Source of the DNA: Candidatus Kaiserbacteria bacterium RIFCSPLOWO2_01_FULL_51_21
GTDB taxonomy: Bacteria > Patescibacteriota > Minisyncoccia > Phycocordibacterales > 2-01-FULL-51-21
Length of the DNA: 64,000 bases
Assembly: GCA_001781435.1 (NCBI GenBank)
Contig: MFLV01000011.1
Location: 11,268-75,267 of the forward strand
Reading direction: 5' to 3'
The stretch's first letter is position 1; every line of letters starts with the position of its first letter. A model generated the notes under the pieces. The model saw nothing but the letters and a program-made list of their open reading frames with translations. It was not told where the DNA came from and searched no databases. The position numbers and the translations under genes were made by a program. Positions 24,912 to 25,170 of the stretch are shown here, one piece after another.

Positions 24912-24983
24912 GTCCCCGTAGTTCAACGGATAGAACGCGAGCTTGCGGAGCTCGTAATCGAGGTTCGATTCCTCGCGGGGGCA
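24912..24983 (+). tRNA. tRNA-Arg (anticodon GCG as read)
   Basis: GTCCCCGTAGTTCAACGGATAGAACGCGAGCTTGCGGAGCTCGTAATCGAGGTTCGATTCCTCGCGGGGGCA; anticodon stem CGAGC/GCTCG. Confidence 0.75.
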
Positions 24984-25170
24984 AAAGCGAAGCTTTTGCC
25001 GGCCGCAGTCTGCGTAGGCAGACGAGGCGGGGTCGCAGAACTTTCCAGCAGGAAAGTATCCGTGACCAAAAAGAAAGGATTTGCCGGGTGGAGCGAGCGT
25101 GGGTGAGTGAGCTAGGATTGCAACTTGCGCCAGTAGGCGAAAAGTTGTGACCAAAAACGAGGCTTTCGCC
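24980..25170 (+). repeat. tRNA-trailer structured repeats: a perfect hairpin overlapping the tRNA 3' end, one canonical ~75-nt unit and one diverged unit
   Basis: GGCAAAAGCgaaGCTTTTGCC, then ...gacgaGGCGGGGTCGCAGAACTTTCCagcaGGAAAGTATCCGTGACC, then a diverged ...CAACTTgcgccagtaggcgaAAGTTGTGACC. Confidence 0.55.

Follow-up and report, generated by a model that had tools for sequence, protein, structure and literature searches.

A covarying structured element at tRNA 3′-ends across Patescibacteria, possibly a non-autonomous and insertion-prone family

Several kinds of genetic element are associated with the genes for transfer RNA (tRNA) and other structured RNAs. Integrases reportedly mediate integration at known sublocations within tRNA and transfer-messenger RNA (tmRNA) genes, a classification reportedly given by Williams in 2002; archaeal bulge-helix-bulge introns occupy non-canonical tRNA positions, and target recognition by IS200/IS605 elements relies on pairing to an internal guide that lies beside a hairpin. 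PMC13011429 describes group I introns in tRNA anticodon loops and, through its reference 55 (Williams 2002), in the T-loop of tmRNA; PMC12045711 refers (references 66-67) to dicistronic genes of a tRNA and a small nucleolar RNA (snoRNA) that are processed by RNase Z. Here we describe E1, a structured element present in a 64,000-nt stretch of DNA from Candidatus Kaiserbacteria bacterium RIFCSPLOWO2_01_FULL_51_21 (assembly GCA_001781435.1, contig MFLV01000011.1, positions 11,268 to 75,267 of the forward strand); this whole stretch is hereafter called the window, and coordinates refer to it. E1 is akin to known kinds of sequence, namely structured intergenic repeats and tRNA-targeting insertions. 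With a probability of about 0.5, we consider it a non-coding, non-autonomous and insertion-prone family of structured elements, specialised for tRNA-like genes and distributed across Patescibacteria, in which the hairpins observed over tRNA 3′-ends are a junction helix.

ARAGORN identified eight tRNA genes in the window, all eight confirmed by Rfam. They include tRNA-Arg(GCG) (24912-24983, plus strand; 72 nt, Rfam tRNA score 62.9 bits) followed by tRNA-Arg(CCG) (25188-25259, plus strand), as proposed in an original prediction made from the sequence alone; the two programs agreed on ends at 24983 and 25259, in both cases at discriminator A73 with no CCA encoded. That prediction also placed both 3′-ends inside perfect hairpins, and with the ends so defined the overlap with the acceptor stem persisted. 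At tRNA-Arg(GCG), the 5′ arm of the hairpin GGCAAAAGC-gaa-GCTTTTGCC (24980-25000, plus strand; seen in the sequence and in the scan described below) consists of acceptor positions 70-72, A73 and five trailer nucleotides, and its 3′ arm is a tRNA-complementary segment termed g. At tRNA-Arg(CCG), four acceptor nucleotides and A73 lie in the 5′ arm of GAGGATTATT-aacgaagta-AATAATCCTC (25255-25283, plus strand; same sources). A scan for perfect hairpins (stem of at least 9 bp, loop of 3-12 nt) returned only 26 in the 64 kb of the window, covering 1.1% of its bases, and these enclose four of the eight tRNA 3′-ends: the two above, that of tRNA-Lys(TTT) (gene at 29583-29655, plus strand, called by ARAGORN and Rfam; hairpin GGCGGACTTGT-ggg-ACAAGTCCGCC at 29650-29674, plus strand) and that of tRNA-Arg(TCT) (hairpin at 18478-18502, minus strand), a fourth case that the prediction had overlooked. 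The overlap is non-random, its chance probability being about 1e-6 by our own estimate. Since such hairpins do not follow most genes of the window, the possibility that they trail genes regardless of type, which the prediction itself had raised, falls away. Nor is the feature universal, because tRNA-Ser, tRNA-Leu and tRNA-His lack it. In other Patescibacteria genomes, 24 other tRNA 3′-ends were likewise found embedded in a stem. As for the tRNA genes themselves, tRNA-Lys(TTT) opens with a C1-G72 pair (CCGCCCA...TGGGCGG), as it does in the relatives at loci L128, L156 and L167. The four-box arginine tRNA has a GCG anticodon at the syntenic position in every relative where a tRNA-Arg was found (L127-L167), the usual bacterial anticodon being ACG, read with inosine. 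The minus-strand tRNA-Val(TAC) is enclosed by an 11-bp leader/trailer helix (CGGTTTTCTGT...ACAGAAAACCG, 18286-18296 / 18371-18381) that prolongs its acceptor stem and looks like a processing stalk of the ribosomal RNA (rRNA) type.

The hairpins over the tRNA ends may well be Px, the first stem, or junction helix, of a three-way junction formed by E1. E1 is a strand-specific module of ∼95 nt (range 75-100 nt) with helices Px, P2 and P3, and alignment reveals invariant unpaired nucleotides in its junction. The P2 consensus is GNC-G(G/C)A-[4-6-bp hairpin]-GA-GN'C, containing a G(G/C)A//GA internal loop; P3 combines a 9-bp lower helix and a variable upper helix of 7 bp with an invariant G.U pair, a bulged A and a loop reading AGCA. 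Local copies all have GGGTCGC-N24-YGTGACC in common, with compensatory changes within. A covariance model built from E1 copies (R1) finds six copies in the window. Two follow tRNA-Arg(GCG) on the plus strand. The first (24990-25067; 70.9 bits, E = 2e-17) is also an exact pattern match, with P2 at 25002-25028 (GCC GCA GTCTGC-gtag-GCAGAC GA GGC) and P3 at 25030-25067 (GGGTCGC...AGCA...GTGACC); the second (25075-25152; 33.9 bits, E = 1.9e-7) has diverged, with compensatory changes that keep its helices. The two repeat units originally noticed here are thus real, although their extents had been drawn too short. Two more copies follow tRNA-Lys in tandem on the plus strand (29664-29741, 62.4 bits; 29751-29824, 80.6 bits), and on the minus strand a Px hairpin plus E1 occupies 18392-18502 between tRNA-Arg(TCT) and tRNA-Val (E1 at 18392-18468, 50.2 bits). 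The sixth copy (9450-9527, minus strand; 54.4 bits, placed from the sequence and the open reading frames (ORFs)) has its own closed Px (CTGAATCC...GGATTCAG) and no tRNA nearby; it lies between the next ORF and an L11-like gene (9606-10028) that we take to be rplK from the end of its translated ORF rather than from a database search.

Structural statistics were drawn from an alignment of 118 E1 copies. Pairing was found in 93.1% of cells, compared with 73.9% after shuffling and 34-46% with slid partners; double compensatory changes occurred in 500 cells against 143 in the shuffles, and the covariation score was 0.516 against 0.166. P3 alone was 97.8% paired, with nine of its pairs varying on both sides. 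The G.U pairs, visible also in tandem units, indicate a single strand, which is that of the tRNA, and G.U-to-G-C-to-A-U exchanges are present. R1 scored the sense strand at 50-81 bits and the antisense of the same sites at about 15 bits. Px covaries between relatives too: it reads GGCAAATTATG-tgggg-CATAATTTGCC in L127 and GGCAATCGTT-tgggg-AACGATTGCC in L130, compared with GGCAAAAGC/GCTTTTGCC in the window, so that nearly every trailer position differs among the three, with pairing complete and the TGCC that faces the tRNA GGCA always kept. Judging from these alignments, E1 is under structural selection at the RNA level. Gathering-score scans of the window and 13 loci with Rfam 15 gave no match over E1 or over the cargos E2 and E3 described below, and scans of four regions at E<=10 gave only tRNA and rRNA (tRNA, 5S, LSU rRNA). 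No description of E1 was found in the searchable literature, which is not proof that none exists.

To survey its distribution, one genome per species (596 Gb in all) was scanned with the pattern GGGTCGC N10 ARCAR N6 AYN YGTGACC, which carries 38 bits, so that by our own calculation about 4 chance matches are expected. At least 120 loci (species genomes) matched. Nearly all of those among the matches listed are Patescibacteria, from Paceibacterota/Parcubacteria, Saccharibacteria, Nomura-, Kaiser-, Adler-, Taylor- and Berkelbacteria. What had been taken for a local tRNA-trailer repeat is therefore the same structured element throughout the phylum, found also away from tRNAs and in other settings, at the T-loop socket, the D-arm, tmRNA and 5S. 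The viral contigs of IMG/VR gave 0 matches to the E1 pattern, and a phage origin was rejected on this ground. Copies within this genome agree at only 12-20 of 25 variable-core positions, each of these cores has a 22-25/25 match in another species, and 11 species from several classes share one identical 25-nt core. When 1983 ORFs taken from the 120 loci were clustered all against all, no family occurred in more than 11 loci, the recurrent families identified being housekeeping ones.

Neighbours and flanks of E1 copies were counted (129 copies for tRNA position). Of the 129, 88 lie no more than 400 nt downstream of a same-strand tRNA and one lies downstream of an opposite-strand tRNA; many isoacceptors are involved, the distance from tRNA end to P3 is mostly 47-100 nt, and the order tRNA-E1-tRNA is frequent, with gaps of 14-30 nt. 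Within the 16 nt 5′ of P2, 68 of 76 copies have an exact complement of at least 6 nt to the tRNA 3′ region (median 9), whereas a direct match of at least 6 nt, used as a control, was present in 12 of 76. The complement pairs to the T-loop/T-stem in 44 of the 68 and to the 3′-end in the other 24. In the T-loop type, a reverse complement of the T-loop and of the 3′ strand of the T-stem stands just 5′ of P2; it follows each local T-loop variant and is 16-19 nt long in L127 and L133. Directly after P3 comes a copy, in direct orientation, of tRNA positions 57-73 plus C74 (a match of at least 15/17 in 34 of 39 copies), which at some loci extends up to 12 nt into the trailer, the direct repeat measuring 17-30 nt. 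The 3′-end type, to which the window copies at tRNA-Arg(GCG), tRNA-Arg(TCT) and tRNA-Lys belong, has 5′ of P2 a segment complementary to the final 3-5 nt of the tRNA and to 4-10 nt of trailer, and after P3 a 3-6-nt repeat of A73-C74-A75..., the direct repeat of this type ranging from 0 to 6 nt. Both the inverted and the direct flanks are copies of the local tRNA, different at every locus. The two main types are circular permutations of one three-way junction composed of the tRNA-segment:g helix, P2 and P3.

Other placements involve interrupted genes. Copies upstream of tRNA-Ile, tRNA-Asn and tRNA-Ser lie inside a partial 5′ tRNA copy (positions 1-10, element, 14-19), and whole tRNA-Lys copies are split in the T-loop (53, element, 57) beside an intact tRNA-Lys. 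T-loop-type E1 also occurs after tmRNA 3′-ends downstream of smpB (L092, L065 and probably L119). In L001 (838-1110), the second of two tandem 5S rRNA genes holds an antisense E1 between ...CACCC and CTCATTCC, with GTT lost, and an intact 5S gene adjoins this interrupted copy. Retro-copying of mature tRNA was considered as a source of the downstream tRNA copies: these have CCA where the gene lacks it in L041, L056, L057 and L083, the reverse is seen in L071 and L088, and most read CAA or CAT, as in the genes.

Two further cargos of the window show the same arrangement of flanks. Downstream of tRNA-Arg(CCG) lies a g segment (ATGCAGGAATCGAA, 25307-25320, plus strand; recognised in the sequence and as repeat family D7) in which GCAGGAATCGAA is reverse-complementary to the T-loop and the 3′ strand of the T-stem of that tRNA (TTCGATTCCTGC). 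Next come E2 (25321-25395, plus strand), made of a long hairpin, M1 (CCTGTTTGAGATATTTTC...GAAAATATCCAAACA), and the GTACTG..CCGTAG motif M5 (GTACTGTTCCCGTAGGAAAA), and then DR2 (25396-25412, plus strand; D7 and sequence), a 17/17 direct copy of tRNA-Arg(CCG) positions 57-73 (GATTCCTGCCGAGAGGA), so that E2 stands between inverted and direct tRNA copies. The hairpin at 25255-25283 does span the tRNA end, as the original prediction held, but it belongs to this other cargo type. The same cargo is present in L130, and M5 was found in nine further loci. E3 (22706-22845, plus strand; from the sequence) follows tRNA-Ser; it starts with an inverted T-arm copy, GTGAGATTCGAAC (22706-22718), continues with ∼105 nt of structured sequence and ends with a direct copy of the tRNA-Ser 3′-end (CTCACCCCCTCCG, 22833-22845). 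Cargo of the E3 type lies downstream of tRNA-Arg(GCG) in L132 and L133. Different cargo types, E1, E2 and E3, share the same socket. M1 hairpins occur twice in the window in similar form (9545-9592, CCTTGTGAGATATTTT...AAATATCCACAAGG; 25321-25375) and, from locus to locus, are joined with E1 hairpins in varying order.

The presence of E1 was compared in 42 loci with RuvA relatives (45-74% identity), many of which keep the order tRNA-Arg(GCG), tRNA-Arg(CCG), ruvA. E1 was found in only three. The spacer between the two arginine tRNAs is 5 nt in L134, 22 nt in L141 and 26 nt in L156, all with 0 copies; 204 nt in the window, with two; 449 nt in L127 / L128, with four in tandem plus a degenerate one; and 1118 nt in L130, where it holds one copy and an ORF. 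At the empty sites of L134 and L141, tRNA-Arg(GCG) encodes CCA. Px and the element are absent from the tRNA-Lys of L128, L167, L159 and L156, and the window insert starts right after C74. The orthologous site after tRNA-Arg(CCG) has E2 in the window and in L130, and a P2-P3 element in L127. A larger islet was noticed in L029 (1435-4640): ∼3 kb encoding a ThsB-TIR-like protein and a DUF4231/SLATT two-transmembrane (2TM) protein, flanked by a 178-nt, 97%-identical direct repeat that starts ∼7 nt before P3 of two E1 copies near tRNA-Tyr.

Two other kinds of repeat were recorded in the window. Runs with a 7-nt period (TTCGTAA / TTCGTAC / TTCTTAA and complements) occur at 7324-7377, 21758-21825, 22542-22570, 33025-33117, 38624-38663, 49177-49230, 53859-53968, 54611-54659, 55015-55077 and 55488-55605; those inspected are intergenic, some are arranged as inverted arrays that face each other, and some are found immediately upstream of genes, that for tRNA-Ser among them. 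Four tandem units of ∼121-129 nt (61-88% identity) at 23679-24186 lie inside a 491-aa ORF (23405-24880, minus strand) for which no Pfam match was found.

E1 is placed where it could influence the maturation of tRNA 3′-ends. Among 27 tRNAs with a 3′-end-type element, none encodes CCA, compared with 5 of 31 other element-bearing and 51 of 210 element-free tRNAs. Maturation of the 27 therefore requires endonucleolytic cleavage on the 3′ side and the addition of CCA, and the absence of CCA from all 27 makes a link between the element and 3′ processing plausible. Over all loci, C74 is encoded in 246 of 268 tRNA genes and full CCA in 56, the commonest 74-76 triplet being CAA. Nearest-neighbour folding of each tRNA plus its trailer, which ignores co-transcriptional folding and tRNA tertiary structure, favoured the trailer hairpin over the acceptor stem by 2.8-3.6 kcal/mol for tRNA-Arg(GCG), 5.8-11.3 kcal/mol for tRNA-Arg(CCG) and 10-14 kcal/mol for tRNA-Lys; for tRNA-Arg(TCT) the trailer hairpin was not favoured and the acceptor stem was kept. 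In the competition that the original prediction had envisaged, the trailer hairpin is thus predicted to win for three of the four tRNAs. A two-state scheme can be proposed. E1, sitting in sense orientation directly after position 73/74 of a CCA-less tRNA gene, would be transcribed as part of the pre-tRNA. Its conserved P2-P3 core is preceded by g, an exact complement of the host T-loop/T-stem or of the 3′-end plus trailer, and followed by a direct copy of the same host segment. In one state g would pair with the real tRNA and occlude the acceptor 3′ strand; in the other it would pair with the downstream copy, which would close the three-way junction and free the tRNA. Release would then require a cut after N73 and CCA addition.

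E1 can be set against the families that it most resembles. Like REP (repetitive extragenic palindromic)/BIME and REP-RAYT, MITE (miniature inverted-repeat transposable element), Correia, RUP and PATE/IS200-IS605-derived repeats, it is short, non-coding, hairpin-rich and multi-copy, varies in copy number between relatives and occupies putatively transcribed intergenic regions. Unlike them, it is conserved in sequence across a phylum rather than a genus, its within-genome copies are not near-identical and its flanks are templated from the host tRNA; its copies are tandem and direct and do not form the inverted pairs of REPINs, and no recurrent neighbour protein family accompanies them. A MITE proper was rejected, there being no intrinsic terminal inverted repeats or fixed target duplication and the flanks being local tRNA copies. 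With integrative tRNA/tmRNA elements (the Williams 2002 classes) E1 shares the insertion sublocations, an intact tRNA, a direct repeat from crossover to 3′-end and tmRNA as a target; it differs in its 90-150 nt, in having no integrase, in the inverted tRNA copy on the other side of the cargo, in its covarying, strand-specific, RNA-type core and in its absence from viral contigs. Examined as an integrase att remnant, it does have the expected direct repeat abutting P3 (the 34 of 39 T-loop-type copies above), but the inserts are 90-150 nt rather than kb-scale and no integrase was found among the clustered neighbour ORFs. Mobile introns of structured RNA genes likewise target exposed tRNA, tmRNA and rRNA loops, form a junction helix by element-exon pairing and belong to a class in which Patescibacteria are rich. 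E1 is far smaller, its common classes leave the host gene uninterrupted with a partial duplicate, and the interrupted E1-bearing copies look like pseudogenes beside an intact copy. Dicistronic tRNA-small RNA genes and 3′ trailer-derived sRNAs likewise have a structured RNA directly behind a tRNA on the same strand, often between two tRNAs; E1 lacks box C/D and the features of other known small-RNA classes, pairs with the tRNA's own 3′-end and is dispensable in close relatives.

More specific candidates were rejected. Against a group I intron stand the size of E1 (75-100 nt, compared with about 200 nt or more for a P3-P9 core), its ...GTGACC end with no G before a 3′ splice site, the adjoining intact tRNA and the absence of an RF00028 signal even in the ∼210-nt composites of L107. 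P3 superficially resembles group II domain V, a 34-nt hairpin with an AGC/CGC triad, in its 9-bp lower helix, G.U pair and 3′-strand bulge, but the bulge is 1 nt instead of 2, the loop is AGCA instead of GNRA, the spacing differs, domain VI is absent and RF00029 does not match. TIGR-Tas arrays were considered because E1 has a kink-turn (K-turn)-like GA motif and a link to the Candidate Phyla Radiation (CPR); such arrays alternate 8-12-nt repeats with 9-nt spacers, their 36-nt units contain box C/D, and a Tas gene with a Nop domain lies next to them, whereas E1 units are 83-95 nt with another architecture, g and the direct copy are complementary to each other and not to neighbouring sites on the two strands, and no adjacent gene recurs. 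For a likeness to a Y RNA/Ro-binding helix and to T-boxes, no supporting feature or Rfam match was found.

Of the remaining explanations, the idea that the hairpins are ordinary intrinsic terminators, or palindromes that arose by chance behind tRNA genes, is scarcely credible. Canonical terminators do exist nearby (22663-22696 and 25417-25449), but Px has no U tract, is followed by GGCC/GACC and P2 without T runs, and overlaps acceptor positions 70-73; a conserved covarying module follows it, it recurs in other genomes, and the chance estimate given above is very small. A role for the host is harder to dismiss. E1 could be a small structured RNA, or a cis-acting processing or insulator element, co-transcribed with the tRNA: RNase Z and RNase P might free it, as with plant dicistronic tRNA-snoRNA genes, or it might set the timing of 3′-maturation through g:tRNA pairing. 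Its function could then be to time processing, to insulate tRNAs from one another or to yield a small RNA. We regard this as somewhat unlikely, but it stays a serious rival because of the phylum-wide conservation (identical 25-nt cores in up to 11 species) and the covarying Px, which in three relatives has changed in a fully compensated manner and still pairs with the tRNA end. It also agrees with the strand-specific covariation and G.U pairs, the sense orientation relative to the tRNA (88 to 1), the common tRNA-E1-tRNA order with its 14-30-nt gaps and the 27 of 27 tRNAs without encoded CCA, and the RNase Z-processed tRNA-snoRNA genes referred to in PMC12045711 offer a precedent. Less easily accommodated are the close relatives that manage the same tRNAs with empty sites and CCA-encoding genes, the range of 0 to 5 copies at one locus, the copies that interrupt pseudo-copies of tRNA-Lys and 5S or run antisense to 5S, the unrelated, interchangeable cargos in the same socket, and a patchy occurrence along related contigs (3 of 42 RuvA-related loci).

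That E1 is a structured recombination site seems very unlikely to us. P3 and P1 would then be folded single-strand or att-like sites for a recombinase acting in trans, comparable to integron attC or to the att sites of tRNA T-loops and 3′-ends, and E1 copies would be remnants or landing pads. The insertion positions, in the T-loop and at the extreme 3′-end, coincide with the known integrase sublocations, the 3′ part of the tRNA is directly repeated, and the L029 islet with its TIR-like and SLATT genes lies between 178-nt repeats that start at P3; yet the 120 loci have no nearby integrase, IMG/VR viral contigs have no match, the units are only ∼90-150 nt, orientation follows transcription, and G.U pairs with G.U-to-G-C-to-A-U exchanges are typical of RNA helices. 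Equally improbable is a self-acting RNA, in which the P2-P3 junction would be a new small ribozyme or a guide scaffold that recognises the tRNA 3′ segment via g and either cuts the tRNA/trailer junction or directs its own insertion. The invariant unpaired junction nucleotides, the lack of a linked protein and a tRNA-segment helix circularly permuted between types, as in hammerhead and twister ribozymes, speak for it; set against these, nothing similar was found among Rfam ribozymes and introns at E<=10, and a fixed guide cannot account for the match between g and each local tRNA.

We return to E1 as an insertion-prone, non-autonomous family, whose mobility we infer. Spread at the RNA level, or templated by hairpins, is what the precise junctions at exposed tRNA positions (10/14, 53-57, 73/74), the apparent 3-nt loss at the insertion point, the partial gene duplicates and the perfect inverted copy point toward; the coincidence with integrase sublocations and the islet of L029, whose flanking repeats begin at P3, point toward a recombinase. 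Several observations weigh against such a family. No transposase, integrase or reverse transcriptase was linked to E1 by ORF clustering over the 120 loci, and E1 copies lack both intrinsic terminal inverted repeats and a target duplication of fixed length. All contigs of the population are identical (the six that carry this RuvA do not differ over the region), so that no polymorphic insertion was seen. Px covariation and G.U pairs indicate RNA-level selection, equally explained by a host function, and within-genome copies are more divergent than cross-species ones, which is unlike a recent MITE burst and, at the sequence level, suggests functional constraint. A bolder proposal, which we consider unlikely, is that E1, E2 and E3 form a new class of mobile RNA free of protein genes, with a three-way-junction scaffold, a target-templated guide and a sense copy. 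Here the guide would be an antisense match to the T-arm or the 3′-end of the tRNA. Recognition or processing of tRNA-like 3′-ends would fall to the scaffold, acting either as a ribozyme or with the help of a universal host factor or a reverse transcriptase, and the scaffold would copy itself alongside them.

A large part of bacterial diversity belongs to Patescibacteria, which have tiny genomes, many introns and a tRNA biology that is poorly known. An abundant, phylum-wide and uncatalogued structure at the very site of tRNA 3′-end formation would bear on tRNA annotation, on models of tRNA maturation and on catalogues of RNA families. E1 is also a practical marker for Patescibacteria contigs, and the covariance model R1 is ready for use. 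We know of no transposon, intron or integrative-element class that fits inverted and direct copies of the host tRNA around a conserved scaffold, and E1 may therefore uncover a new route by which structured RNA genes are colonised by small RNAs or DNAs.

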